Positions 20,082 to 63,908 of a DNA stretch of 64,000 bases are shown here, piece after piece. The stretch is from NCBI GenBank assembly GCA_048499675.1, contig JASNZL010000007.1, forward strand, positions 2,401 through 66,400, read 5' to 3'. The translations under genes and the position numbers were made by a program. This DNA comes from Candidatus Zambryskiibacteriota bacterium. GTDB taxonomy: Bacteria > Patescibacteriota > Minisyncoccia > Phycocordibacterales > WO2-35-19. Below the pieces are notes generated by a model. The model was given only the letters and a program-made list of their open reading frames with translations, ran no database searches and had not been told where the DNA came from. Each line of letters starts with the position of its first letter. The first letter of the stretch is position 1.

Positions 20082-20155
20082 TGGTAGGGCGTGTGGGATA
20101 TGAACCCACATCCTCTCCCTTATAGGGAGATGTCTTGCTCTTAGACCACCGCCCC
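20082..20155 (-). tRNA. tRNA-like element in the 23S-5S spacer with an encoded CCA and a non-canonical anticodon loop (CUAUAAG)
   Basis: The minus strand folds as GGGGCGG-TG-GTCT-AAGAGCA-AGAC-A-TCTCC-CTATAAG-GGAGA-GGAT-GTGGG-TTCATAT-CCCAC-ACGCCCT-A-CCA. All four arms form, but the implied anticodon AUA is not a known species. Confidence 0.4.
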
Positions 20156-21638: not shown

Positions 21639-22467
21639 CTGTCGTATTGCCCCAATTACTTGAGGGGTCGGACTATATCTTCACCCTTATTTTATATAAA
21701 ATAAGGGGTTCGGCGTATTAGCATGAAGTCTAGCTTCACACTCCAACCACTTAAGGTTAAGTCTCTACGGGGTCATAACCCAATTTATATTTCATGGACG
21801 GAATAATATTATTTTCTATAATTCCAAATAATTTCGAAATACTAGATGTCTTAAATCTAATTCTGTAATACTCTTTATCTTTATTTAGAGTCCCCTCTAA
21901 ACCAAATTCTTTTAGAGACCGCAATAATTTCTCTTGGTCACTTTTTGAAAATTGTTGAGTATTCAGATACACATTATTTTTTCCACATCTACTTCCGTCA
22001 TCCATAAACCATACTGCCAATATTATTGGATCTAATTTTAGATCAGGAATACATTTTTTCTTATTCCTATAAAACAAATCCATCATTTTGGTAAATTCAG
22101 GATGTTGTTTGGTAAAGAATCTATATGCAATCCGCGCACCATTTCCTTTTCGAGATTTTGGTCCACTTCTTGATAAATTTTTTAAGATTGAGAATTTCCA
22201 TTCAACATACTCTTTTTGAGTTATTGAATGATTAACTTCCAAAAATGCATTTTTTCTTCCTTTTACTCGACGAATATATCCGTCTCCTAAAAGAGTTCCG
22301 ATAATAAATGACTTCTGTAATTGAGTTAGACTTCCCTCGGTATTGTCCATATTACTAATTATATCATTTGATATAACGCCTGTTTATGGAGTCCACCGAT
22401 ATAAGCCAAATTTTTTTATATGAGATTACTCTCATAGGCACCCCGATGTGTTGTAACAACAAGTTAA
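21639..22467 (-). mobile_element. Group I-like intron in 23S domain V (after …GGCACC; E. coli ~2449 site) encoding a LAGLIDADG homing endonuclease
   Basis: The exon resumes at CGATGTCGGCTCATC. The insert contains a 594-nt ORF. Confidence 0.65.
21757..22350 (-). CDS. LAGLIDADG homing endonuclease (two-motif type)
   Basis: LLGDGYI and WFMDDGS motifs; located inside the 23S intron. Confidence 0.8.
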   Translation of the reverse strand: MDNTEGSLTQLQKSFIIGTLLGDGYIRRVKGRKNAFLEVNHSITQKEYVEWKFSILKNLSRSGPKSRKGNGARIAYRFFTKQHPEFTKMMDLFYRNKKKCIPDLKLDPIILAVWFMDDGSRCGKNNVYLNTQQFSKSDQEKLLRSLKEFGLEGTLNKDKEYYRIRFKTSSISKLFGIIENNIIPSMKYKLGYDPVET

Positions 22468-23017
22468 GGTGCCGAACTCCGCCGTCGCTCTGGACGCTTA
22501 GGCGGAACCAGCCTGTTATCCCCGGAGTAGCTTTTGTCCGATAATCTTTTGCCGCGTCTAACGCGAACAATCGGTTCACTTAGCTCTGCTTTCGCATCTG
22601 CTCCTCATGTACGAGTTGCAGTTAAGCCAGCTTGTGCCTATACACTATCGCCATGGTTTCCATTCACGGCTAGCTGACCTTAATAGGCTCCTCCGTTACT
22701 CTTTGGGAGGATAGCGCCCCACTAAAACTGCCCACCAGACACTGTTTCTTTACGTTTTTGCCGTAGAGATTAGAAAATATATCAATACAGAGTGGTATTT
22801 CACTGACGACTCCATGCTCCCCAAAAGGAACACTTCAAAGTCTCCCACCTATGCTACGCAGTAAAAACATATCCTCAATGCCAAGTTGCAGTAAAGCTTC
22901 CGGGGTCTTTTCGTCTAACTGCAGGTAACCGGCATCTTCACCGGTATTGTATTTTCACCGAGCGAGTCCCCGAGACAGTTCCCCAGTCGTTACACCATTC
23001 GTGCGCGTCTGAACTTC

Positions 23018-23373
23018 ATGTCTCGTTTTTTGTTTGCGTTATCAATCGCAAACTTACGATTTCTCTTATTTCTAAGAGCATAGACTATATCTTCATCTTA
23101 AGAGAACCTATAAATTTTATCTTAAGAGTCGGCGTGTTATAACAATGTTTTCTCAAATTTAATTGAGGCATTTGCTATCCGTTCATTTCTGAACAAGTCG
23201 TTACGGGTTCACGATTTGTCCAAATTAATATTTGGTCACAAATCGCAATTCCCACGGTATTATCTTTCCTTCAACATTCTTATCCTTGAATAAGAACTCC
23301 AGTTAAGACTTCACCGTTATTAGCCGAATTTTTTCATCGAGATTACTCTCGAAGCTGGCAATTCAATTACCAG
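23018..23373 (-). mobile_element. ORF-less intron-like insertion in 23S domain IV (after GGTAGCGAAATTCCTTGTC; E. coli ~1931 site)
   Basis: The exon resumes at AAGTTCAGACGCGCACGAATGG. The insert is ~356 nt. Confidence 0.5.
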
Positions 23374-23399
23374 ACAAGGAATTTCGCTACCTTAGGACG

Positions 23400-24148
23400 A
23401 TTCATTTCTTTTTATTACTCAGTTAGTAGCTACTGAGAGCCTCATTGTCGCCAATGAGATCGGACTATATCTTCCCAAAATGATTTCTCGCTTTAGGTCT
23501 AGCGTATAGTCTCTGAGGATTTTCTGATAAGGAATTTTTATAATCTTTTAAATTATACTTCCTTGTTCTTCCTTTTCCTTCGTTCAATTTCTCTCGAAGT
23601 TCTACAACCTTTAACATTCCGTCATTACTTAAATGTTCTTTTTTGAAAACCATTTTTGCAATTTGGGAGAAGATTGAGAAATTTTTCTTCTTATTTGAAG
23701 AAAGAAAAGAATATTTTTCAAAGAAAGGTATTATCCTTTCTTCAATAGCGACAGGATTCTCTACTACGTAGTAGCAAACCCCGTCTTTTCGTTCTTGCAA
23801 TCTTCCACATCCTAAATGATGTTTCATTAACGCAAGAACAGTTTTGTCGCGTTGAGCAACATTTAAAGTCAGTACCACTTGCCATCCAAGAGAATGATCT
23901 TCTCTTTTTCTTAGTGAGACATTGAAGCTTCCTTCTCCGTCCACAAAGCCAGCAATATAGTTTCCTATATTTTGAGGAATTGACTTAAGCCACGAAATAT
24001 CTTTCATTTTTAATTCGTTGCTTATCAGAATCTTTCCTGCGGATTGTCTGCACCGCTACATTTTTACTGCCATTTCGATTTATGACGAGTAGTAGACGGA
24101 TACTCAGAGTTTCCCGCATTTAGCTAGATTTTATAACTACAATTATCC
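23400..24148 (-). mobile_element. Intron-like insertion in the 23S (after GGCGATAACTATAA; E. coli ~1917 region) encoding a LAGLIDADG endonuclease
   Basis: The exon resumes at CGTCCTAAGGTAGCG. The insert contains a 543-nt ORF. Confidence 0.55.
23465..24007 (-). CDS. LAGLIDADG homing endonuclease (single-motif type)
   Basis: YIAGFVDGEGSF motif; located inside the 23S insertion. Confidence 0.75.
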   Translation of the reverse strand: MKDISWLKSIPQNIGNYIAGFVDGEGSFNVSLRKREDHSLGWQVVLTLNVAQRDKTVLALMKHHLGCGRLQERKDGVCYYVVENPVAIEERIIPFFEKYSFLSSNKKKNFSIFSQIAKMVFKKEHLSNDGMLKVVELREKLNEGKGRTRKYNLKDYKNSLSENPQRLYARPKARNHFGKI

Positions 24149-24389
24149 TTATAGTTATCGCCGACATTCACCAGGGCTTACAACAGTCAGCATACATCAT
24201 GCTGAGTACGAGAATTTTCAATTTGAAAATTCATACGCAGTATGATGTACACCGCCATTGTTTAACCTTCTGGCATTGGTCAGGTGTCACCCCCTATACA
24301 TCCTCTTACGAGTTCGCAGGGAGCTGTGTTTTTGATAAACAGTCGCCAGGGATTCTTTAGCTGCGGCCCAACCGCACCTCGCTACGCTC

Positions 24390-24520
24390 GGGCGGAATTC
24401 TCAATTTTTAATTTTTAATTTTCATTCAATTTTCAATGTATTAATTTCAAGTTTTTAACATTGTAAATTAGAAATTATTTGAAAATTTTAAATTGTAAAT
24501 TTTAAATTCCGTGCCGAATG
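24390..24520 (-). repeat. AT-rich intervening sequence (IVS) in the 23S, family member with similar termini
   Basis: Flanked by CCTCGCTACGCTCGGGCGG and CCGTGCCGAATGCAATGAGGCACGG, with an interior of AATTTTCAATTTT-type repeats. Confidence 0.6.
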
Positions 24521-25089
24521 CAATGAGGCACGGTCGGGCAGGCCTTATACCGAAGGTACGGCCGCTTTTTTGCCGAGTTCCTTGGGGACCTCTCACTCGT
24601 TCGCCTTGGTCTTCTCGACCTGACTACCTGTGTCGGTTTACGGTACGGTCTATTTATGCTTAACCTTAGAAGATTTTCTTGGAAGCGTGCTTTACAAACT
24701 CTTATCTGCCGAGGCTTCAAATTGTCATACTGCTTGAGGTGCAATTAAATGCAGTCTTGCGGATTTACCTACAAGACACCCTTACAGCACAAACGCAAAT
24801 CCAATAATGCGCTTTGTATACTACACTCCGTCTCTCCATCGAACATAAACAGGTGCAGGAATATTAACCTGCTGTCCATCGGGTCCGACTTTCGTCATAC
24901 CCTTAGGCCCGACTAACCCTTCCCTGATTGTCATCGGAAAGGAAACCTTAGTCTTTCGGCGCGCGCAGTTTTCATGCGCGTTGTGGTTACTTGTGCCAAC
25001 ATTCTTACTTCGTAACGCTCCAGCATGGGTCACCCCTTTGCCTTCACAGCGGATACGAATACTCTCCTACCGCGCCAGCCACACTACGC

Positions 25090-25250
25090 TACGCTCCGTG
25101 CGCTGGAATTTTCAATTTAAAATTTTCAATTTTCAATCAATTTTCAATGTCTTAATTTTGAAATTTAGAAATTAAGAATTTAATCATTGTTTAGAAATTA
25201 GAAATTAAAAATTAGAAATTCCGCACGAAATGCAATGTAGTGCGGCCGAC
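25090..25250 (-). repeat. AT-rich IVS in the 23S, family member
   Basis: Flanked by CACTACGCTACGCTCCGTGCGCTGG and CCGCACGAAATGCAATGTAGTGCGG. Confidence 0.6.
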
Positions 25251-25318
25251 ACCCTCAGTTTCGGTACATAGCTTAGCCCCGATTATCTTCGGCGCAGAAT
25301 CTCTGAATGAGTGAGCTG

Positions 25319-25361
<43 letters not shown>

Positions 25362-25940
25362 CATTGTCGGAGAAATTTCACCACCTTAAGTGCACTTAGC
25401 TATGATTTAGGGACCTTAAATTGAGATCATGGGCTGTTTCCCTTTTGACGAACGGAGCTTAGCCCCCGCCGTCTAACTGCCACGCTTTCACCCACACACT
25501 AAGTTTTCGATAGTTTTCAACGCGCTTTGCGCAATCAAAAACTTAGTGTGCGGGTTAACTATTGGTATTCGGAGTTTGATAGGTCTAGCGAGATTTCTCC
25601 CTGTCCAGACCTTCCAGTGCTCTACCCCCAATAGGAACGCGTGACGCGAACCCAAAAGCTCTTTCGGAGAGAACCAGCTATTACCAGGTTCGATTAGCTT
25701 TTCACTCCTTACCACAGGTCATCCGAAGGAATCGCACGACCAACCGGTTCGGGCCTCCATCTCGCTTTCGCGAGACTTCACCCTGCCCATGGCAAGCTCA
25801 CCTGGCTTCGGGTCTAATGTATACGACATAAAATTTCGCGCTATTCACGCTCGCTTTCACTATGCCTAACGCGGGTCGACCGCTTCGGCTGCCACATACA
25901 TTAACTCGTTGGCTCATTCTTCAATAGGCACGCCATGACC

Positions 25941-26111
25941 GTCACACCTCGCTACACTCGGTGACGGAATTTTCAATTTAAAATTTAAAATTTAAAAATA
26001 ATTTTCAATATCCCAATTCTCAATTAAGAAAATGGAAATTTAATCATTATTTAGAAATTAGAAATTAAAAATTAGAAATTCCGTTGCAACGAATGCACTG
26101 AGGTGCAACGG
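25941..26111 (-). repeat. AT-rich IVS in the 23S, family member
   Basis: Flanked by GTCACACCTCGCTACACTCGGTGAC and CCGTTGCAACGAATGCACTGAGGTGCAACGG. Confidence 0.6.
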
Positions 26112-26166
26112 CTCTGACTCCTTGTAAGCATATGGTTTCAGGTCTATTTCACCGCCCTCACCGGGC

Positions 26167-26208
<42 letters not shown>

Positions 26209-26646
26209 TAGAAATATATTTAGCCTTACCGGTTAGTTCCGGCAGATTCCCCCGAGCTATTCGTGTCTCGAGGTACTCAAGAACAACAGCAAAAAAGATT
26301 ATTTGTTTTCGACTACGGGGCTATTACCCTCTGGGGCGCTTCTTTCCAGAAGCTTCTTCTAACAAATAATTTTGTAACTTTTCTCGTATAAATACGACGC
26401 TATCGTCTTACAACCCCCGCACACTCACTTTGTCATCGTTGCATTGTGTTTTTATAAAATTTCATTGCACATCCGATTAGCTACCGAATCTTAAATTTCG
26501 TTTACTATCAAAGATGCAACAAAACACAATGACAAAGTGAGTGTGCGGGTTTGGGCTTCTCCGCTTTCGCTCGCCGCTACTCACGGAATACTTTTTAGTT
26601 TCTTTTCCTCCTGGTACTGAAATGTTTTACTTCCCAGGGTAAGCTC

Positions 26647-26805
26647 CGTGCCTCACTACCGCTCGTCACAAAATTTTCAATTTTTAATTTTGTAATTTTC
26701 ATTGAATGTTCCAATTTTAGAATTTTCAAATTGAGACATTGAAAATTTATTGGAAACTGAAAATTGATACTTGAAAATTAGTGCTGAACGAAAGTGAAGC
26801 ACGGT
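26647..26805 (-). repeat. AT-rich IVS in the 23S 5' domain, family member
   Basis: Flanked by CCGTGCCTCACTACCGCTCGTCAC and GTGCTGAACGAAAGTGAAGCACGG. Confidence 0.55.
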
Positions 26806-27523
26806 CCTCGCAAAGCGAGGGGGTTTCCCCATTCGGAAATTTCCGGATCAAAGGTTGCTAGGCACCTCCCCGAAACTTATCGCAGCCACGCCACGTCCTT
26901 CATCGCTATTTCTAGCCAAGGCATCCACCATATGCTCTTAAATTTCCTATTAGGAAATTCAAAAACCACTTGTCCGATCATTTTAATTTAAAATGATTTA
27001 GGACTTAATTATCCTGTCTTACAAGACTACAATCATCCTGCAAGACCTTTGTCTCCATATGCCGAGCTTTTTTCTCCAGCATACAGAAACTACAATATCC
27101 TGATACAAAAAATATATCAGGAAGTCCACTTCCAACAAACAAAGACCCCTTCGACTCGCTACGCTCGCTCAGGGTAAACCCTCAGCAAAAAGAAGCTCAT
27201 CAAAAAGCGATGTTGTAGTGGAATGTACCCAGTAGTAGATTTTGGCATTGAGCAAGCTCACACATACGCAAGCGTATGTTATGCCAAAATTCACTACTGG
27301 GTTTATTTGTCAAAATACAATCGTTCCGAATTTTGTCTTCTCTACCCTGTTCTTAATTTTAGCAAGCTAAAATTAAGAACAGGATTTTGAATCATTATCT
27401 TACTCAAAAAAGAACAAAAAAATCCACTTCTCTCGAAGCGGGCTCAAACCAAGCCAAAGGGTTTTTTCTACCCTCTTTTTCGCTTCGTAGTTAAAAATCT
27501 CAATAACATAATTTGTGCTATCT

Positions 27524-56416: not shown

Positions 56417-59400
56417 TTATTTTATTTTAATTTTGAATTTATAATTTCCAATTTTTATTTCTTCTCCATCCACGGCACCCAAACTAAATTCGATAATATT
56501 TGTGGGTTTTGAAATAGTAGAAAAATTTGATTCAAAAAACTTTTTTCCTTCTTCACTTGTTTCAATAATAAGTTCTATTTTGTCATTTGGTACTAAACCT
56601 TTTTCTTTTCTTAATTCCTGAATACTTCTTATAAACTCTCTCGCATTCCCCTCTTCTTCCAATTCCTTTGTTATTTCCGTATCCAACCAAACTTCTTCCT
56701 CCATGTTTCCATCAAAAGCCACTTCCTTAACATTTACCTCCTCTTTAATTAGGTTTGTGTGTTCTTCCTTATTTTTTAATTTTGAATTTTTAATTTTTAA
56801 TTTATTTAACGGTTGTCTCACTTTTATTCCTGCGCTATTTCTTTTTTCCATCGCTAGCGAGACTATTTTTCTCACTTCTTCCATTTTTTGATTTAATTCT
56901 TCATCCGCTACAACATTCTCAAGCGTAGACCACTCTTCCAAATGAACACTTTCTTTTTTGTCTCCAAAATTCAAATCTTTATAAATTGTTTCTGCAAGAA
57001 AAGGCATAAACGGCGCAAGAATTTTTGAAAGTTCTATCAAAACAAAAAGTGTGGTTTCTCTTGCTTTCTTTTGATCTTCAAAATCTTCTGATTTAAACCT
57101 ATCTCTTGATCTTCTCAAATACCAAGTTGAAAGGTCTTCCACAAACCCTCTTATTGGCCGACCCGCTTTGACGGTATCGTATTTTTCTAAATTGAGAGTC
57201 ACTTCAGTGTGCAATTCTTTTAGTCTTGAAAGGATCCATCTGTCCAAAACATTATCCGAGTTTGTATTTGGTTTTATGTTGCTCTCGTATGTTTTATAAA
57301 AAGCTACAACGTTTAGTAAAATATTTATAAGTCTTTGGTAGACTTCCTTTACATCGTCATCCCTAAAATTTAAATCTTCTGCCTGCATAACAACGGATGT
57401 CATAAGGTAGTATCGCAAGGCGTCAGCTCCATATCTATCAATTATCACAAGAGGGTCTGTATAATTGCCTTTGGACTTGCTCATTTTCTCACCATCGCTT
57501 GCAAGAATTGTTCCTGTCGTCACGACATTTTTGAATGGTTCATGGCCAAAAATTCCAACCGCAAGCGCATGCATATAATAAAACCACGTCCTTGTCTGGG
57601 CAATATACTCAGCAACAAAATCTCCGGGGCTTCTTTTTTCAAACTCCTCTTTATTTTGAAATGGATAATTGTATTCAGCAAAAGGCATTGAGCCAGACTC
57701 TACCCAACAGTCAATAACTTCGGGAATTCTTGTGAGTTTGCTTCCATCCTCATCTACAAGCTCTATTTCATCAATGTACGGTCTATGTAAATCAATCTCG
57801 TAGTTTTTGTTATGTGGAAGCGGGACAAAGTTTAGTTCTCCAAATTCTGCTGTTTTAAATCTGTATTGTTTTTTTTCTTTTATTTCTTTTCTTTGTTCTT
57901 TGTCTAAAACGTAAGCAGAACCAAAGAGAGCATTTATTGTGCCCTGATGACTAACTATTAAAATATTTTTACCTTTATATTTATTCTCTAAATCGTATAT
58001 AAAATCTCCGACTCGTATATGGAGACTATCGAGAGACTCTACACCTTCTATATTTTTTTCATACTTTTCTCTTTCTGTTTTGAAGTTGCTATCAAACTCT
58101 TTCCAAGTTTTGCCTTCATAATTTTTACCAATTTGGTATTCAGTTATTCTCTCATCTACCAAAATATTTTCTTGATTCAGACCAAAATGCTTAGCTATAA
58201 TTTCTCCAGTTTCTACACATCTTGTTAAAGGCGAAGTAATGATTAAATCTATTTTTTTGTTTTTTATATCAGATGCAACTACCGAAACTTCTCTTTGGCC
58301 CTCCTCCGTTAAATGAAAAACATTATTGGGATCTGCGTTTACGAAGTCTTTTAGATTAGCTTCTGACTCTCCATGTCGCATTACAAAATATTTGTTTCCA
58401 GATTTCTTGACATATTTTTTTAATTCTTCTACTCCGCTTATAACTTTTACTTCTCCTTTATCATTCTTCCATATAGGTAAAGGTGAGGCCCAAAATCTAT
58501 TTCGGCTAATTGTCCAATCTGGCGCTTTTTCTACTATATCTCTAAATCTTCCATTTTTTAAGTGAGCCGGAACCCAGTTTATATTTTCGTTTTTGGAAAG
58601 CATTTCGCTTTTTATTTTTTGAATATCTATAAACCAACTCGAGAGCGCGTTGTAAATAAGTGGAGTGGAACATCTGTAACAATGTGGGTAAGAGTGAGTG
58701 TTTGGTTTTTTATCAAACAAAAGACTTCTTTTCTCCAAATCTTCTATGACCATTTTTTCTGCTTTTTTGATGTAGACACCTTTTACGAATTCCGGAGCAT
58801 TGTCGTTGTAGTGACCATTTGAAAGAAGGAGCGGGACCATTGGCAAATCTGCTTTGAGACCTAACTGGTAGTCGTCTTCTCCATAAATTACAGCGGTGTG
58901 CACAATGCCTGTCCCCTCTTCCGTATTTACAAAATCAGCTGACAAAACATACCACGCTTTTTTGCCTGTATTTTTTACTGCATCCAAATGATAAAGTGGC
59001 TCGTATTCTAAACCAGCCAAATCTTTGCCTTTTATTTCTTTTTTTATTTCATATTCTTGCCCACCGAAAATACTTTCTACTCTATCTTTTGCCAATATGT
59101 AATTTTCTTTAGTGCTTAGTGCTTCGCTTTTTTTAACTTCGACTATTACATAATCAATATCGTCCCCCACCGCCAAAGCAACATTCGCTGGAAGTGTCCA
59201 TGGGGTTGTCGTCCAAGCCAACAGATAGCTATTTTTAAATTTTTCATTTTTAATTTTAAATTTTATAGTGACCGCTTCTTCTGTGACATCCTTGTATGAA
59301 TTATCCATAGCAATCTCTGCTTTTGAGAGAGGAGTCTCACATCTTGGACAATAGAGCAAAACTTTCCTGCCCTCGTAGAGCATTCCTTTTTTTTGGATAT

Positions 59401-59881
59401 GGGAAATCGCCCACCAAACACTCTCGGTATAGCTTGTATCCATCGTCTTGTAGGAATTATCAAAATCTACAAAACGAGCAAGTCTATCTATATATTTTTT
59501 CCAATCGTTAACATAGGTCAAAACTTGAGACCTACATTCTTCGTTGAACTTTGCAATCCCCATCTCCTCTATATCTTTTTTGTGTTTGAGTCCGAGTTTT
59601 TTCTCTACTATGTTTTCTACTGGAAGTCCGTGACAATCCCAACCCCACCTTCTGCGAACATTGTAGCCCTGCATAGTTTTGAAACGCGGGAAAAGATCTT
59701 TGGCGGTTGAACCGAGTAAATGTCCGTAGTGAGGTAATCCTGTTGCAAAAGGGGGTCCATCATAAAAAACAAACTCCCCTTTAGGTGAAGGTTTCTCTAA
59801 TGTTTTTTCAAAAATTTTATTTTCCTGCCAAAATTTTAAAATTTCTTCTTCTTGCTGTGCAATTTTACTTTTTTCTGTCAT
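56417..59881 (-). CDS. ileS: Isoleucyl-tRNA synthetase carrying an inserted histidine-phosphatase (PGAM-like) domain
   Basis: HYGH and KMSKS class I motifs, CP1 editing domain and anticodon-binding domain. Residues ~497-690 form a complete RHGE…SHQG histidine-phosphatase domain (FVMRHGESEANL … LIVSHQGTINAL). It is inserted between …WTISRNRFWASPLPIW and …DCWVESGS. Confidence 0.85.
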   Translation of the reverse strand: MTEKSKIAQQEEEILKFWQENKIFEKTLEKPSPKGEFVFYDGPPFATGLPHYGHLLGSTAKDLFPRFKTMQGYNVRRRWGWDCHGLPVENIVEKKLGLKHKKDIEEMGIAKFNEECRSQVLTYVNDWKKYIDRLARFVDFDNSYKTMDTSYTESVWWAISHIQKKGMLYEGRKVLLYCPRCETPLSKAEIAMDNSYKDVTEEAVTIKFKIKNEKFKNSYLLAWTTTPWTLPANVALAVGDDIDYVIVEVKKSEALSTKENYILAKDRVESIFGGQEYEIKKEIKGKDLAGLEYEPLYHLDAVKNTGKKAWYVLSADFVNTEEGTGIVHTAVIYGEDDYQLGLKADLPMVPLLLSNGHYNDNAPEFVKGVYIKKAEKMVIEDLEKRSLLFDKKPNTHSYPHCYRCSTPLIYNALSSWFIDIQKIKSEMLSKNENINWVPAHLKNGRFRDIVEKAPDWTISRNRFWASPLPIWKNDKGEVKVISGVEELKKYVKKSGNKYFVMRHGESEANLKDFVNADPNNVFHLTEEGQREVSVVASDIKNKKIDLIITSPLTRCVETGEIIAKHFGLNQENILVDERITEYQIGKNYEGKTWKEFDSNFKTEREKYEKNIEGVESLDSLHIRVGDFIYDLENKYKGKNILIVSHQGTINALFGSAYVLDKEQRKEIKEKKQYRFKTAEFGELNFVPLPHNKNYEIDLHRPYIDEIELVDEDGSKLTRIPEVIDCWVESGSMPFAEYNYPFQNKEEFEKRSPGDFVAEYIAQTRTWFYYMHALAVGIFGHEPFKNVVTTGTILASDGEKMSKSKGNYTDPLVIIDRYGADALRYYLMTSVVMQAEDLNFRDDDVKEVYQRLINILLNVVAFYKTYESNIKPNTNSDNVLDRWILSRLKELHTEVTLNLEKYDTVKAGRPIRGFVEDLSTWYLRRSRDRFKSEDFEDQKKARETTLFVLIELSKILAPFMPFLAETIYKDLNFGDKKESVHLEEWSTLENVVADEELNQKMEEVRKIVSLAMEKRNSAGIKVRQPLNKLKIKNSKLKNKEEHTNLIKEEVNVKEVAFDGNMEEEVWLDTEITKELEEEGNAREFIRSIQELRKEKGLVPNDKIELIIETSEEGKKFFESNFSTISKPTNIIEFSLGAVDGEEIKIGNYKFKIKIK

Positions 59882-59955
59882 TCCTCAATAGTAGCCGATT
59901 TCTCTCACTTTTTCAAAAGATTTTGTATTTTGTTTTCTATCTCTTGTGCTTAATC
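59879..59955. repeat. Direct repeat copy 1 (~75 bp, includes GAGGAA-ATG of ileS)
   Basis: cattcctcaatagtagccgatttctctcactttttcaaaagattttgtattttgttttctatctcttgt, repeated at 60451-60527 with one mismatch. Confidence 0.85.
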
Positions 59956-60060
59956 AAAAAATATTTCACCACAAATGGTTGACTTTCAACTTAGTTTGTG
60001 TATACTAATCATACAAAGTGCCGAAAGGCTCCGAGAAGCCCCGCGAGAGCGGGGTTTCGA

Positions 60061-60453
60061 CTATCTGATAAAATTTCTCAATTTTTCTCTCATTTTTACA
60101 AAAATATCTGGAGCGATTTCATATAATTTTCTTTTCAATCTTTTTACACTCACAAGCTTCATTTGAGCCAAAATAACAGAAACTTTTTGATTATTTGGGT
60201 CTGTAAAATTGAAGTAAAAATCAAATTTCTTTTGTTTAGTAGAAAGTGGAACACACCAAAACATATGATTGTTAAATTTCTTAATAACAAGGACTGGTCT
60301 TGAAAAATTATCACCGCTTCCATTTTGCTCATACCCAATATTTTTACCAATTGAAGACATCCAAACTTCCGCTTCTTTCGGAAAATAATTAGGAGAACCA
60401 TTTTCAAACTGTATTTTCTTTTTAAGTTCGTTCCATGAGTCGTATTCGTTCAT
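60061..60453 (-). CDS. PemK/MazF-family toxin (mRNA interferase-like); no adjacent antitoxin
   Basis: …EAEVWMSSIGKNIGYEQNGSGDNFSRPVLVIKKF…CVPLSTKQ… matches the PemK/Kid pattern GEIW…G.EQ.G.RPVLIV…VPVTS. Bracketed by the ~75-bp direct repeats. Confidence 0.6.
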   Translation of the reverse strand: MNEYDSWNELKKKIQFENGSPNYFPKEAEVWMSSIGKNIGYEQNGSGDNFSRPVLVIKKFNNHMFWCVPLSTKQKKFDFYFNFTDPNNQKVSVILAQMKLVSVKRLKRKLYEIAPDIFVKMREKLRNFIR

Positions 60454-60527
60454 TCCTCAATATTAGCCGATTTCTCTCACTTTTTCAAAAGATTTTGTAT
60501 TTTGTTTTCTATCTCTTGTTTAATCGC
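60451..60527. repeat. Direct repeat copy 2 (overlaps the last 17 codons of the RT gene and supplies GAGGAA-ATG of the MazF-like gene)
   Basis: See copy 1. Confidence 0.85.
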
Positions 60528-61484
60528 AAACTGATTTCCATGTTTCAATAATCCACAATATGAAGTGAGCACATTTACATTTTCACTCTCTTTTAATGCC
60601 TTAGTTACTCTTCTTTTAGTACTTGTCCTTAAAACTCTATGATTAGGAAAATGAACCCAACCCAAAAAATCAAGTCCAGAATAAATTGTCTTTATAAACA
60701 CTTTATCCGGATGAAATTCTAGCTTTAATTTTTTTTGAAGAAAATTGGAAATTTTTGGCATAAGGTTTAACAGAATATTTTTATCACTATCAAAAATAAC
60801 AAAATCATCAGCGTATCTAATATAATATTTAATTTTTAGTTTATGTTTTACAAACTGATCAAATTTATTCATATAAACATTGACCAAAAGTTGGGAAGTT
60901 AGATTACCCAAAGGGAGACCTGTATTTGGTTTACCAATTGTATTAAAACTTTCAATTACTCTCTCCAATAACCAAACTATGTCTTTGTCTTGTATATATT
61001 CATTTAAAATATTAATCAAAATCTCGTGATTTATTGAAGCAAAAAACTTTTTTATATCGCACTTCAATATATAACATTGTTTTGTATTATTTTTTGATAC
61101 TTTTGTACCAAAAAATCTAAATCTATTTATAGCCCTATGTGTTCCTTTGTTTAATCTGCACGAATAAGAATCATATATAAAAAGTTGGTCAAAATATGGG
61201 TATAAAACTCTATGTATGGCGTGGTGCAAAAGACGATCCCTTACACTTGCCTTGTGTATGTTTCTTGGTTTTGGGTCACTTATATTAAACGCTTTGTATC
61301 CATCATGTTTGTATGTTTTGTTTTTGAGAGCATGGTGTAAATCAATAATGTTTCCTGATAAATTTAGAGCAAACTCCGCGACATCTTTTTTATCTTTTTT
61401 ACCTTTTATGAATTCCTGCCATGATTCAAAAAGATTTTTAATTGATATAATATTTTCATAATCAATTTTAATTAAATTTTTCAT
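60477..61484 (-). CDS. Diversity-generating retroelement (DGR) reverse transcriptase
   Basis: Start MKNLIKIDYENIISIKNLFESWQEFIKGKKDKKDVAEF (DGR-RT N-terminus). Motifs SVRDRLLHHA, CDIKKFFASINHEIL, the DGR hallmark GLPLGNLTSQ (SQ in place of the SP of group II RTs), and YIRYADDFVIF. No maturase or endonuclease domain. The track ORF is extended artefactually to 61535 through the 5'-UTR hairpin and G11. Confidence 0.85.
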   Translation of the reverse strand: MKNLIKIDYENIISIKNLFESWQEFIKGKKDKKDVAEFALNLSGNIIDLHHALKNKTYKHDGYKAFNISDPKPRNIHKASVRDRLLHHAIHRVLYPYFDQLFIYDSYSCRLNKGTHRAINRFRFFGTKVSKNNTKQCYILKCDIKKFFASINHEILINILNEYIQDKDIVWLLERVIESFNTIGKPNTGLPLGNLTSQLLVNVYMNKFDQFVKHKLKIKYYIRYADDFVIFDSDKNILLNLMPKISNFLQKKLKLEFHPDKVFIKTIYSGLDFLGWVHFPNHRVLRTSTKRRVTKALKESENVNVLTSYCGLLKHGNQFAIKQEIENKIQNLLKK

Positions 61485-61869
61485 ATGAATACCAATTCTA
61501 CCCCCCCCCCGAGGATTACCACAAGTAATCCTCAAAGAAAAAGAAACGTATATTCTTTGGCAAAGATTACATAAAAATTTTCCAAAAGTTGAACGATTTG
61601 GTTTAGGACAAAAGATCGAAAATTTGTTTCTTTCTATTTTGGAATTAACTTTTTCTTCCGCCTATTTATCCCTCGAACCTAAAATATTGATGCTTGGCAA
61701 GACTATATCTCGACTTGATGTCCTTAAATTTTTTATTCAGATTGCTTGGGAGAATAAACTAATTTCAACAGAACAACACATTGCACTTTCAAACAACTTA
61801 GAGGAAATTGGCCGACAACTCGGTGGTTGGAAAAAAGGTTTAAAAACAAAACTCCCACCTAAAAAATGA
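61485..61869 (+). CDS. avd: DGR accessory variability determinant (Avd-like four-helix-bundle protein); N-terminus disrupted or phase-shifted by a C11 homopolymer
   Basis: The frame beginning at TTG 61558 gives …VYSLQRLHKNFPKVERFGLGQKIENL…LISTEQHIALSNNLEEIGRQLGGWKK, matching the Avd/TIGR02436 pattern. An ATG at 61485, head-to-head with the RT start codon (CATATG), would join this frame if the C-tract were 10 or 13 nt long. Confidence 0.55.
61501..61534. promoter_or_regulatory. C11/G11 homopolymer plus a 9-bp-stem hairpin (GAGGATTAC-CACAA-GTAATCCTC) in the 5' region shared by divergent avd and RT
   Basis: Direct sequence observation. This is the only long homopolymer in the window. Confidence 0.7.
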
Positions 61870-61885
61870 TGGGAGAAATGACTAG

Positions 61886-62005
61886 TTTCGGGACGACAAT
61901 CCGATGACGGTTGTCGCCATTCCACACATTGTCGTTCGAGAAGTGGTTGACGTTAGCGTTCGGCTTACCATCACTGTTCAGATTCACGTTAGCAACGAAG
62001 AATTT
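61886..62005 (-). repeat. DGR template repeat (TR)
   Basis: ~120 nt matching the VR at 62317-62436 with 20 mismatches. Every mismatch is at a position that is A in the TR (minus strand). The TR reading frame is rich in AAC/AAT codons (…NVNLNSDGKPNANVNHFSNDNVWNGDNRHRIVV). Confidence 0.85.
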
Positions 62006-62301: not shown

Positions 62302-62931
62302 CTAAGCTACGAGGGTCTGCGGGACGACAAACCGATGACGGTAGTCGCCAAGCCACACAACGTCGCCCGAGAAGTGGTTGACGCAAGCGTCCGGCCCACC
62401 AGCACCGTACAGATGCACGAAAGCAACGAAGAATTCATCGCCCACCTTGAACAAAAAGAAGGTGGCGTATCCGTCAGTGCGGAGCCACTTCTTGTGGTTT
62501 TCCACAAAAGCAACGATTTGCTCCTGGGTCAGACAAAGATCGTCCCGTTCGCGACCAAGACTGCCGAAGATAGTTTTAAAATCGCCATCCTTGACCATCT
62601 CGTAGACCTCAACGGGAGTTTCCGGCTTTGCCTCCCCTGGGACATCCAAACCCCAGTTTTTGAACTCGGAGTCAATGCCCAAAGTGAACACATCACCGGC
62701 GGAAGAGACCATCCTTTGGCCGGTCGTGGCACGGATCGCGATTCGCTTTCCGCCGGAGATGAGGCGGAGAATTGGTTCTACCTCGACCTTCACCCAGCAG
62801 GGTTCCTTGCGGAGGAACTTTTTGAACTCTGCAATCCACTTGGTCCCGTCGGGACCAGACAGCTTCTCAAAAAAATCTGTGATTGCTCCGGCCACTTCAG
62901 CCAGAGTGTTTGTGCCGAGTACGCTTGACAT
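62302..62931 (-). CDS. DGR variable (target) protein, small and cytoplasmic, with the VR in its last ~40 codons
   Basis: 209 aa with no signal peptide. The VR is at 62317-62436 (…FFVAFVHLYGAGGPDACVNHFSGDVVWLGDYRHRFVVPQTLVA). The CDS is ~53% GC, against ~30% for the RT and avd. Confidence 0.75.
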   Translation of the reverse strand: MSSVLGTNTLAEVAGAITDFFEKLSGPDGTKWIAEFKKFLRKEPCWVKVEVEPILRLISGGKRIAIRATTGQRMVSSAGDVFTLGIDSEFKNWGLDVPGEAKPETPVEVYEMVKDGDFKTIFGSLGRERDDLCLTQEQIVAFVENHKKWLRTDGYATFFLFKVGDEFFVAFVHLYGAGGPDACVNHFSGDVVWLGDYRHRFVVPQTLVA

Positions 62932-63032: not shown

Positions 63033-63908
63033 TTAGAGCGTATTTAGAAATTTTTTTATCTCCTCAAACTCCTCTGGCAAAGCCGATTCTACTTTTATAT
63101 GAGTTCCGCTTGGTAATTCCAATTTTATAGAAACGGCATGAAGCATTAATCTTTGCTTTTTCTTATCGTAACTCGTATCTCGTAACTCGTGCTTCATGCC
63201 CCCATATACTTTATCTCCTACGACAGGGTGCCCTATTGATTTCAAATGGACTCTAATCTGATGAGTTCTGCCAGTTTTTGGTTTTACTTCTACATAAGCC
63301 CCCACTTCGCCAAGGCTACGCGGGGTAAATAACCCTTGAGCTAAAACCTTGTATCCTGTGACCGCTTCCCTCAACTCCCCTTTTGCTCCATACTCTGCTG
63401 ACCACTTTCTAAAATCAGAAGCGCTCCGCCCAATTGGTTTGTCTATCACCCCTTCCAATTTATCTTCATTAAATTTACCCCAAACTACAGCGTGATAAAT
63501 TTTCTCTACTTTTCTAGCTTGGAATTGCTCTTTGAGATATTGATGAGCTTCTTTGGTTTTTGCAACCAAAATAACTCCACTTGTATCTTTGTCCAGTCGG
63601 TGCACTATCCCCGGTCTTTTTATGACTTCACCATTTTGTAAAATTTGTTCTTCCCCAACATCCTTAAGTTCTGGGTAATTTTGAAGAATCCAATCAGTCA
63701 AAGTTTTTTCTTTGCTCCTACTATCGGAACCTGCCCCGCGATCTGCGTCAGCTGATTTTGCGGAACCTGCCCCGCGATCTGCGTCAGCTGATTTTGCGGG
63801 GCTTGCCCCGCGATCTGCGTTAGTAGATTTTGCGGGGTGAACCAAAAGCCCACAAGGTTTATCAAGAGCCAATATATATTCGTCTTCATACAATATTTTT
63901 ATTTCCAT
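63033..63908 (-). CDS. RluA-family pseudouridine synthase with an in-frame 3 x 36-bp GC-rich tandem repeat insertion
   Basis: VHRLDKDTSG catalytic motif and RTHQIRVH motif. The repeat at 63727-63834 encodes (AKSADADRGAGS)x3. Confidence 0.8.
   Translation of the reverse strand: MEIKILYEDEYILALDKPCGLLVHPAKSTNADRGASPAKSADADRGAGSAKSADADRGAGSDSRSKEKTLTDWILQNYPELKDVGEEQILQNGEVIKRPGIVHRLDKDTSGVILVAKTKEAHQYLKEQFQARKVEKIYHAVVWGKFNEDKLEGVIDKPIGRSASDFRKWSAEYGAKGELREAVTGYKVLAQGLFTPRSLGEVGAYVEVKPKTGRTHQIRVHLKSIGHPVVGDKVYGGMKHELRDTSYDKKKQRLMLHAVSIKLELPSGTHIKVESALPEEFEEIKKFLNTL

Follow-up and report, generated by a model that had tools for sequence, protein, structure and literature searches.

In type II toxin-antitoxin systems such as MazEF and PemIK (Kid-Kis), the toxin gene is accompanied by an adjacent, co-directional gene for a small protein antitoxin. 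In type III systems (ToxIN, CptIN, TenpIN) a Kid/MazF-like endoribonuclease is neutralised by a structured RNA bound to it, and this RNA is encoded as a tandem repeat array upstream of the toxin gene, on the same strand and with a terminator between the two. In type I systems the toxin is a short hydrophobic peptide, and in txpA/RatA and bsrG/SR4 of Bacillus subtilis the toxin gene is convergent with an antisense RNA that overlaps it at the 3' end. Here we describe a locus that resembles each of these in part: a gene for a PemK/MazF-like protein (hereafter the toxin gene) and a convergent gene for a predicted small RNA (sRNA), found in 64,000 nucleotides of DNA from Candidatus Zambryskiibacteriota bacterium (assembly GCA_048499675.1, contig JASNZL010000007.1, positions 2,401 to 66,400; this whole stretch is called the window). 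On the minus strand the order is the reverse transcriptase (RT) gene of a diversity-generating retroelement (DGR), the 130-aa toxin open reading frame (ORF) and ileS. An initial annotation, made from the sequence alone, had proposed that the toxin gene, which is bracketed by direct repeats, is a secondary insertion or duplication at the RT-ileS junction. Comparison with related loci supports that proposal, and we consider it highly probable that a module comprising the toxin and sRNA genes entered at the ileS start codon and that the junction was duplicated in the event.

A repeat search of the window recovers the direct repeat as 59873-59947 against 60445-60519 (75 nt, 96% identity, spacing 572 bp). 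Its 70-nt core occurs at two sites only (59878-59947 and 60450-60519; pattern search of the window, up to three mismatches), against a chance expectation of 0.00 (100 shuffles). The claim of a duplicated sequence of about 73 nt with one mismatch is thus borne out: within the core the copies differ at a single position, C versus A, which lies in a -10-like hexamer that reads TACTAT in copy 1 and TAATAT in copy 2. The outer limits originally given to the copies (59955 and 60527) can be reached, but only by allowing a 2-nt indel at the outer edge (GATTAA-gc-ACAAGAG versus GATTAA-ACAAGAG), with which the repeat stretches to about 76-78 nt. Copy 2 does contain the RT tail and stop codon, although not the 17 codons first reported: the last 13 full codons plus the stop are covered without gaps, and 16 with the gapped extension. 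Translated in the RT frame, copy 2 ends in FAIKQEIENKIQNLLKK followed by the stop, and copy 1 reads D, stop, AQEIENKIQNLLKK, stop; an in-frame TAA therefore does break the RT tail in copy 1. Both copies terminate in GAGGAATGA, which is the source of the toxin ATG in copy 2 and of the ileS ATG in copy 1, exactly as had been supposed.

If the toxin gene is an insertion, relatives may retain an RT-ileS junction that lacks it – a comparison that the initial annotation had called for – and two such junctions were found. The tail KQEIENKIQNLLKK belongs natively to RTs of this family: P0122, the closest homologue (85% identical), ends identically, and P0123, P0124 and P0143 end similarly. On the metagenome contig that carries P0122 (L045) the repeat sequence is present once, and the RT tail leads through GAGAAATCGGCTACTATTGAGGA to ATGACAGAAAAAAGCAAAATTGCACAGCAAG, the ileS start. 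On the contig of P0123 (L046, RT 74% identical) the RT gene is followed, after 18 nt, by ileS (MSEKSKIAQQEEEILKFWQ). Since in both contigs the RT abuts ileS, the RT-ileS arrangement is the older state and the toxin gene the insertion. The single copy of L045 has the TACTAT of window copy 1, and where L045 has TAA both window copies have TGA; because the TGA is common to the two window copies, the duplication took place within the window's own lineage. In a more distant relative (L001) ileS directly follows a pseudouridine synthase gene, there is no DGR, and a toxin homologue lies about 5 kb away. The repeat is not found in the other ~165 related loci fetched and so is not a widespread leader, an alternative that the initial annotation had raised. 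The final structure taken alone is symmetric, and would equally permit the opposite polarity, with RT-toxin ancestral and the toxin promoter region later copied in front of ileS. That reading, to which we give almost no weight, is already contradicted: the two relatives have RT directly followed by ileS without a toxin gene, the single copy of L045 combines TACTAT with the ileS codons as does window copy 1, and the native toxin genes of more than 60 relatives have unrelated upstream sequence from which the repeat is absent.

Read on the minus strand, each repeat copy consists of TTGAAA, 17 nt, TA[A/C]TAT, 6 nt (TGAGGA) and ATG. The initial annotation held that copy 2 supplies both a ribosome-binding site and the start of the MazF-like ORF. 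The ATG stands, the ribosome-binding site does not: the Shine-Dalgarno interaction has an established spacing rule, and GAGGA, which directly touches the ATG, is too close. It is also an unlikely Shine-Dalgarno site in the context of this genome, where such a motif is missing from most of the 41 gene starts of the window and TAnnnT stands some 6-7 nt ahead of many start codons. The geometry of the repeat matches the -10-N6-ATG arrangement of native toxin genes in relatives (TGnTAAAAT-N6-ATG) and of ileS in L001 and L046 (TGnTATATT-N6-ATG), and on this basis we interpret the repeat as a leaderless-type promoter, one that would give leaderless or near-leaderless mRNAs. Such mRNAs may be common in this genome, as its start regions suggest; predicted leaderless promoters 6 nt before the ATG may even be its usual route of gene expression, which would affect how gene starts and apparent ribosome-binding sites are read in the Candidate Phyla Radiation (CPR). 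Because copy 2 has a promoter-like site of its own, co-transcription of the toxin gene with the RT, which the initial annotation had thought probable, is not required; it is possible, since no terminator lies in the 23-nt gap between the two genes.

The direct repeats bracket the toxin ORF and the sRNA gene with its promoter, plus about 23 nt of further donor sequence. The inserted unit thus amounts to about 494 bp of donor DNA and about 76-78 bp of duplicated junction, together 572 bp, at the ileS start codon. After insertion the RT tail is intact, the toxin start is in frame and the ileS start is intact. The toxin ORF takes its start codon from the duplicated ileS start, and the N-terminus of the window toxin is about 4-5 codons shorter than in its closest relatives. 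Short sequences are shared at the junctions, ATGA on one side and GATTAA on the other. From the RluA-like gene to ileS there is no recombinase gene (ORFs and Pfam), and a repeat search found no inverted repeats bounding the unit.

The following scenario, set in a Patescibacteria/CPR genome of the Paceibacterota type, would account for these features. In the ancestral state the RT gene would have stood directly before ileS, its last codons overlapping a leaderless-type promoter (TTGAAA-17-TACTAT) that ended 6 nt short of the ileS ATG. Then about 494 bp of donor DNA, carrying the nuclease gene from about its second codon and a convergent sRNA gene of about 55 nt with its promoter, would have been inserted exactly at the ileS ATG, and about 76 bp of the junction would have been copied in the process to give the 572-bp unit. 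The RT would thereby keep its native C-terminus through copy 2, the toxin ORF would become fused in frame to a duplicate of the promoter and start codon of ileS, and ileS would keep its original promoter in copy 1, downstream of G+C-rich hairpins of the module that would otherwise block read-through. Both promoter copies would fire, giving leaderless toxin and ileS mRNAs; the hairpins would stop transcription in both directions, leaving ileS dependent on copy 1. Given the short sequences shared at the junctions and the lack of a recombinase gene in the vicinity, insertion most likely went through a microhomology-guided double template switch or illegitimate recombination, rather than a transposase or integrase. 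The locus resembles known microhomology-mediated template-switch or Campbell-type single-crossover insertions in that a foreign segment lies between direct copies of local sequence, with short shared sequence at the junctions; it differs in an unusually tidy outcome, all four genes apparently staying functional. It would be a clean natural example, complete with an empty site, of a module placed in a very tight junction with nothing broken: with the 76-bp duplication the RT retained its C-terminus, the incoming gene acquired a promoter and start codon, and ileS still had its own promoter.

Other routes to the same structure were weighed against template switching or illegitimate recombination. 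Direct repeats around a compact 0.5-kb unit that is found in differing genomic contexts would be seen if a transposase or integrase had moved a mobile element or gene cassette and the repeats were its ends, its attachment sites or a target-site duplication. We regard this as unlikely, for the repeated sequence is local, is present once at the empty site and is not carried by the module elsewhere; it also stands against this reading that the unit lacks bounding inverted repeats and has no recombinase gene near it. The features of a transposon or insertion-sequence target-site duplication were not found either: the duplication is ~76 bp, far longer than those made by transposases, and the unit has neither a transposase ORF nor terminal inverted repeats. 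A similarly low probability attaches to an RNA-mediated origin, in which the DGR RT or another RT copied an RT-ileS read-through transcript, jumped to a leaderless toxin transcript and then returned, after which the chimeric cDNA recombined into the chromosome. Such an origin would place the left junction where it is, at the toxin start codon, where a leaderless mRNA is also predicted to begin; it fits the location of the insertion at the 3' end of the RT gene of an apparently active DGR, and junction microhomology with two extra bases (gc) is typical of RT template switching. The coincidence at the start codon would follow equally from selection for an expressed in-frame fusion together with the ATGA microhomology; moreover, about 95 nt beyond the toxin's hairpins are included, so that a read-through transcript would be needed, and DGR RTs are tightly template-specific. 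It is very improbable that the duplication is an artefact of mis-joined strain variants. The contig does come from a metagenome assembly, and repeats can mislead assemblers, but both junctions are unique and functional (in-frame toxin fusion, intact RT tail, intact ileS start), the copies differ by one base, and two independent chimeric joins would be needed. Some observations nevertheless count against the insertion scenario as we have drawn it: the window is a metagenome-assembled contig; the right-hand junction with copy 1 falls at GATTAA(gc) or beside it, its exact base depending on the donor sequence; an extra gc is present there; and the promoters, leaderless starts, sRNA ends and sRNA expression are predictions.

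Assignment of the toxin gene to the PemK/MazF-like group, as first annotated, is upheld by a match of its product to Pfam PF02452 (PemK_toxin) above the curated cutoff (34.5 bits versus 23.1, E 2.6e-8, residues 29-128). The match to the NCBIfam MazF model is weak (22.9 bits versus a cutoff of 120, E 6e-5). A single-sequence search of the PDB gave no match, and a profile search gave weak MazF/EndoA matches only, with E about 0.4; in the alignment to B. subtilis EndoA (4MDX, E 0.39) Arg52 falls on the Arg of RPVLV and Thr72 on the Thr of ITAQ, which we take to be catalytic residues of EndoA/MazF. Both are invariant in 20 homologues. No PADLOC defence model was matched. Full-length homologues are 60-84% identical at the protein level, and the wider family comprises 1825 cluster representatives at 50% identity. 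Conservation is strong: homologues with 66-84% amino acid identity to the window toxin have third codon positions that are only 41-59% identical. At about 65 distinct homologous loci there is no conserved upstream protein partner, upstream ORFs being absent or unrelated in size and spacing. A general link between toxin and DGR can be dismissed, as just two other toxin-homologue loci (L041 and L042) have an RT nearby, and those RTs are distant (35-39% identical).

The protein fits the type II MazEF/PemIK toxins – it is small, chromosomal and carries the PemK_toxin domain, and the weak EndoA alignment covers the presumed catalytic residues – yet the pair is not a member of that class, because it has no protein antitoxin. 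An adjacent, co-directional gene for a small protein antitoxin was not found, the toxin gene having the RT upstream and the sRNA gene and ileS downstream, and no MazE/PemI-like gene stands upstream or downstream in the window or in relatives. The toxin is also far from characterised MazF proteins by the NCBIfam score, is unusually conserved, and has a convergent sRNA as its partner. The initial statement that no cognate antitoxin is adjacent was thus correct as regards a protein antitoxin gene; it overlooked a conserved convergent sRNA gene that abuts the toxin stop codon.

About 85 nt on the 3' side of the toxin stop are conserved at the DNA level in L001, L005 and all 36 of the 36 full-length homologues (37 GTDB genome loci). 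On the strand opposite the toxin this element consists of TTGAC (-35), 16-17 nt, TGnTATACT (-10), about 5 nt and then the RNA, the consensus of which is UACAAAGUG-CC[GNRA]GG-CUCCGAGAA-ACCCCGC[loop]GCGGGGU-UUCGAGUUU. The promoter is recognisable across 126 loci (TTGAC in 106, TAnnnT in 123, the TGn extension in 94), whereas the spacer sequence and the bases before the RNA vary. In the window the predicted sRNA is ~55 nt long. Its 5' single strand (ACAAAGUG) is followed by hairpin 1 (60020-60022/60027-60029), which has a GAAA loop; the linker CUCCGA then leads to hairpin 2 (60035-60044/60049-60058), with a GAGA loop, and 2 nt separate the end of this second hairpin from the toxin stop codon (60061-60063).

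A covariance model was built from the sRNA alignment, and structure statistics were calculated on 116 distinct sequences. In the window the model matches once, with 77.6 bits (E 7e-16), at 60008-60076(+). Over the 116 sequences, 99.4% of cells in the two hairpins are paired, and seven pairs are changed on both sides (65 cells); none of 500 shuffles reaches these pairing and covariation values, and slid controls are only 26-56% paired. RNAalifold independently gives the same two-hairpin structure. Pairing is more consistent on the plus strand (28 G.U pairs, 9 non-pairs) than on the toxin strand (7 G.U pairs, 30 non-pairs), and the fold z-score of the window sequence is -3.9 for plus versus -1.9 for minus. 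The loop of hairpin 1 is GNRA in all 116 sequences (GAAA 81, GUAA 17, GCAA 17, GGAA 1); divergent members have UUCG. The core of the sRNA is almost invariant while third codon positions of the toxin have diverged to the extent given above. No Rfam 15 family reaches its gathering score in this region, and a match to RsmY is a chance one (wrong strand, 17.3 bits versus 57, E 0.42). An encoded peptide can likewise be rejected: in sequences with the GUAA loop, the one frame that begins with GUG meets a UAA stop at its third codon, and changes in loop length shift the frame. In full-text searches, in which several papers were represented by title and abstract alone, we found no description of the sRNA or of a nuclease-sRNA pairing, and no occurrence of the sRNA sequence.

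The occurrence of the two genes is asymmetric. A search with a 24-nt core of the sRNA found at least 120 metagenome stretches and no match in the viral contigs searched. Among 163 sRNA elements, 129 have a PemK ORF that ends at the terminator hairpin, 12 lie at contig ends and 22 (~16 distinct) have no PemK ORF. Conversely, full-length toxin homologues are never seen without the sRNA; a distant toxin paralogue in L079 (35% identical) has no detectable adjacent copy. Toxin-less sRNA loci with an intact promoter include L128/L148 and about 14 others (e.g. L054, L078, L120, L063), and at L128 a degraded toxin remnant is still detectable (46% identical over 107 aa), which suggests that the toxin can be lost while the sRNA is kept. 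A second, paralogous sRNA lies at 7837-7908 of L005 (64.8 bits), 1.4 kb from the toxin-linked copy, and others occur in L006, L007 and L051; the one in L005 is convergent with a 100-aa coiled-coil (DUF7310-like) ORF and not with a PemK gene. A conserved alternative protein partner at toxin-less loci was sought and none emerged, the neighbours being DUF2283, a coiled-coil protein and unknowns.

The convergent arrangement, in which toxin and sRNA genes meet at the 3' end and terminator of the toxin gene and the RNA has a strong predicted promoter of its own, recalls the type I pairs. The protein is nonetheless a 130-aa PemK-domain one, presumably soluble and of a nuclease fold, and not a short hydrophobic peptide, the overlap (from predicted transcript ends) is essentially the terminator hairpin and stop codon, and the sRNA is conserved far beyond what pairing in cis would need. 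Type III systems offer the parallel of a Kid/MazF-like endoribonuclease with a structured RNA, and the toxin has a faint match to the NCBIfam CptIN model (16.8 bits versus a cutoff of 90, E 0.0047), a score that does not place it in ToxN/CptN/TenpN. Unlike type III antitoxins, the RNA here has a single copy, encoded downstream of the toxin gene on the other strand; a repeat search of the window found no tandem repeats near the toxin gene.

If the sRNA acts on the nuclease, it would be transcribed from the plus strand, fold as a GNRA-capped hairpin plus a terminator hairpin abutting the toxin stop, and control the protein in one of two ways: bound to it as a pseudo-substrate, or paired with the toxin mRNA at its 3' end. 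Several features fit an RNA antitoxin: the two genes occur asymmetrically, no protein antitoxin was found with them, the predicted promoter looks strong and constitutive, and the genes are convergent. We put the chance that the sRNA is an antitoxin or regulator of the nuclease at only a little short of even. The near-invariant single-stranded segments (ACAAAGUG and CUCCGAGAA) suggest recognition by a protein and not mere antisense pairing, so that a type III-like pseudo-substrate mechanism is slightly favoured over a type I-like antisense one. A bolder proposal, which we advance tentatively and hold to be somewhat doubtful, is that the pair represents a new kind of toxin-antitoxin or nuclease-RNA system: a MazF-superfamily toxin under a single-copy, independently promoted sRNA in place of a MazE-type protein, spread across Patescibacteria and old (synonymous sites saturated, RNA nearly invariant), the window capturing an intragenomic relocation, possibly by way of cDNA made by an RT.

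Against an antitoxin stands the possibility that the PemK-like protein does not serve as the toxin of an addiction module and is instead a conserved housekeeping RNA-processing nuclease of Patescibacteria, with the sRNA as its substrate, cofactor or an independent regulator, and that the insertion simply moved an ordinary two-gene unit; we think this doubtful, though far from negligible. The protein is conserved over saturated synonymous sites and is more conserved than IleS, there is one copy per locus and none in viral contigs, no defence model recognises it, and the sRNA also occurs without the protein, once beside the unrelated coiled-coil ORF. We know of no housekeeping enzyme with the MazF fold, however, and homologues do not vary at the positions aligned with the presumed catalytic Arg and Thr of MazF; the protein is never found without the sRNA while the sRNA survives alone, the asymmetry expected of toxin and antitoxin; and genomic context varies among relatives, as it does for mobile modules. 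Several further points tell against an RNA antitoxin paired with a MazF-type toxin. The toxin is 84% identical to its homologue in L001, where IleS proteins are 48-57% identical, and this exceeds what is typical of a selfish toxin. The sRNA is at times alone or beside unrelated small genes, and extreme conservation of the toxin together with stand-alone sRNAs also fits a housekeeping RNA-protein pair. An AlphaFold2 model (20 close homologues) is mostly beta strands with a C-terminal helix, at a pLDDT (predicted local distance difference test) of 48.7 too poor for a fold search, so the fold assignment rests on the Pfam match and the weak alignments. Whichever role it has, the sRNA gives this "orphan" MazF-like gene a constant RNA companion without a match in Rfam. 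Were it an antitoxin, MazF-superfamily toxins would not be restricted to protein antitoxins, and one of the most conserved small CPR proteins would have an RNA partner open to direct experiment.

Table 1. Positions of the repeats, genes and signals at the toxin locus and of the neighbouring DGR (window coordinates).
Feature	Position	Strand	Remarks
ileS, isoleucyl-tRNA synthetase with inserted histidine-phosphatase domain	56417..59881	-	IleRS match; start from repeat copy 1
Repeat copy 1 (ileS side)	59878..59955	-	core 59878-59947 plus gapped GATTAA extension; dead RT tail; promoter-like site; ileS ATG
Copy 1 promoter-like site	TTGAAA 59916-59911; TACTAT 59893-59888; ileS ATG 59881-59879	-	spacings 17 nt and 6 nt
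Donor-derived tail CCATTTGTGGTGAAATATTTTTT (minus strand)	59956..59978	-	resembles sequence 3' of the module in L012 and L001
sRNA promoter (predicted)	59979..60006	+	TTGACT 59979-59984, 16 nt, TATACT 60001-60006; predicted start ~60013; 10/12 consensus matches
Predicted small RNA, convergent with toxin gene	60013..60066	+	ends predicted; covariance model, structure, covariation
PemK/MazF-superfamily endoribonuclease-like gene, 130 aa	60061..60453	-	Pfam PF02452; single copy in window
Repeat copy 2 (RT side)	60450..60527	-	live RT 3' end, stop 60477-60479; promoter-like site; toxin ATG
Copy 2 promoter-like site	TTGAAA 60488-60483; TAATAT 60465-60460; toxin ATG 60453-60451	-	spacings 17 nt and 6 nt
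DGR reverse-transcriptase gene	60477..61487	-	ATG 61487; mechanical ORF to 61535; RVT_1; 3' end overlaps repeat copy 2
bAvd	61507-61869	+	DGR
Template repeat (TR)	61889-62004		DGR
Variable repeat (VR)	62320-62435		DGR; at 3' end of target gene
DGR target gene	62302-62931	-	

The DGR was correctly recognised in the initial annotation: besides an RT with an RVT_1 domain there are bAvd and a pair of template and variable repeats, 84% identical, in which 20 of 21 core mismatches fall at adenines of the template repeat. In these respects, and in a target gene with a C-terminal variable repeat, it is like the DGRs of the CPR. It is not a component of the toxin-sRNA module; here it is merely the neighbour and the insertion site. 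The target gene has no Pfam match, and a mechanical ORF of 197 aa antisense to it (62335-62928) is probably a by-product of the higher G+C content of the region. Between the divergent starts of the RT (ATG 61487, minus strand) and bAvd lies a C10 homopolymer (61501-61510). The sole upstream ATG available to Avd (61485, plus strand) is one base out of the bAvd frame, and a C9 run would give MNTNSTPPRGLPQVILKEKE... in frame; the same G-run is present in the annotated RT N-termini of relatives (MVILGGGGKIGIHMKN). Either the C10 run reflects a sequencing error in the homopolymer, or it serves as a slipped-strand on/off switch of the DGR accessory protein.

Some other features of the window were observed in passing. 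In IleS, residues 499-663 form a His_Phos_1 domain inserted in the middle of the catalytic domain, an architecture shared with the IleS of L001 (1157 aa). The RluA-like pseudouridine synthase gene (63033-63908) contains three tandem 36-nt repeats (63725-63832) in its N-terminal part, which encode ...KSADADRGAGSA.... A tRNA-Tyr with the unusual anticodon ATA (20082-20155, ARAGORN; confirmed as a tRNA by Rfam) adjoins the 5S rRNA gene. The 23S rRNA gene (22429-26953) measures 4.5 kb versus 2.9 kb for the model, and an ORF inside it (23465-24007, minus strand) encodes a LAGLIDADG homing-endonuclease domain; one or more introns are therefore likely in this gene.

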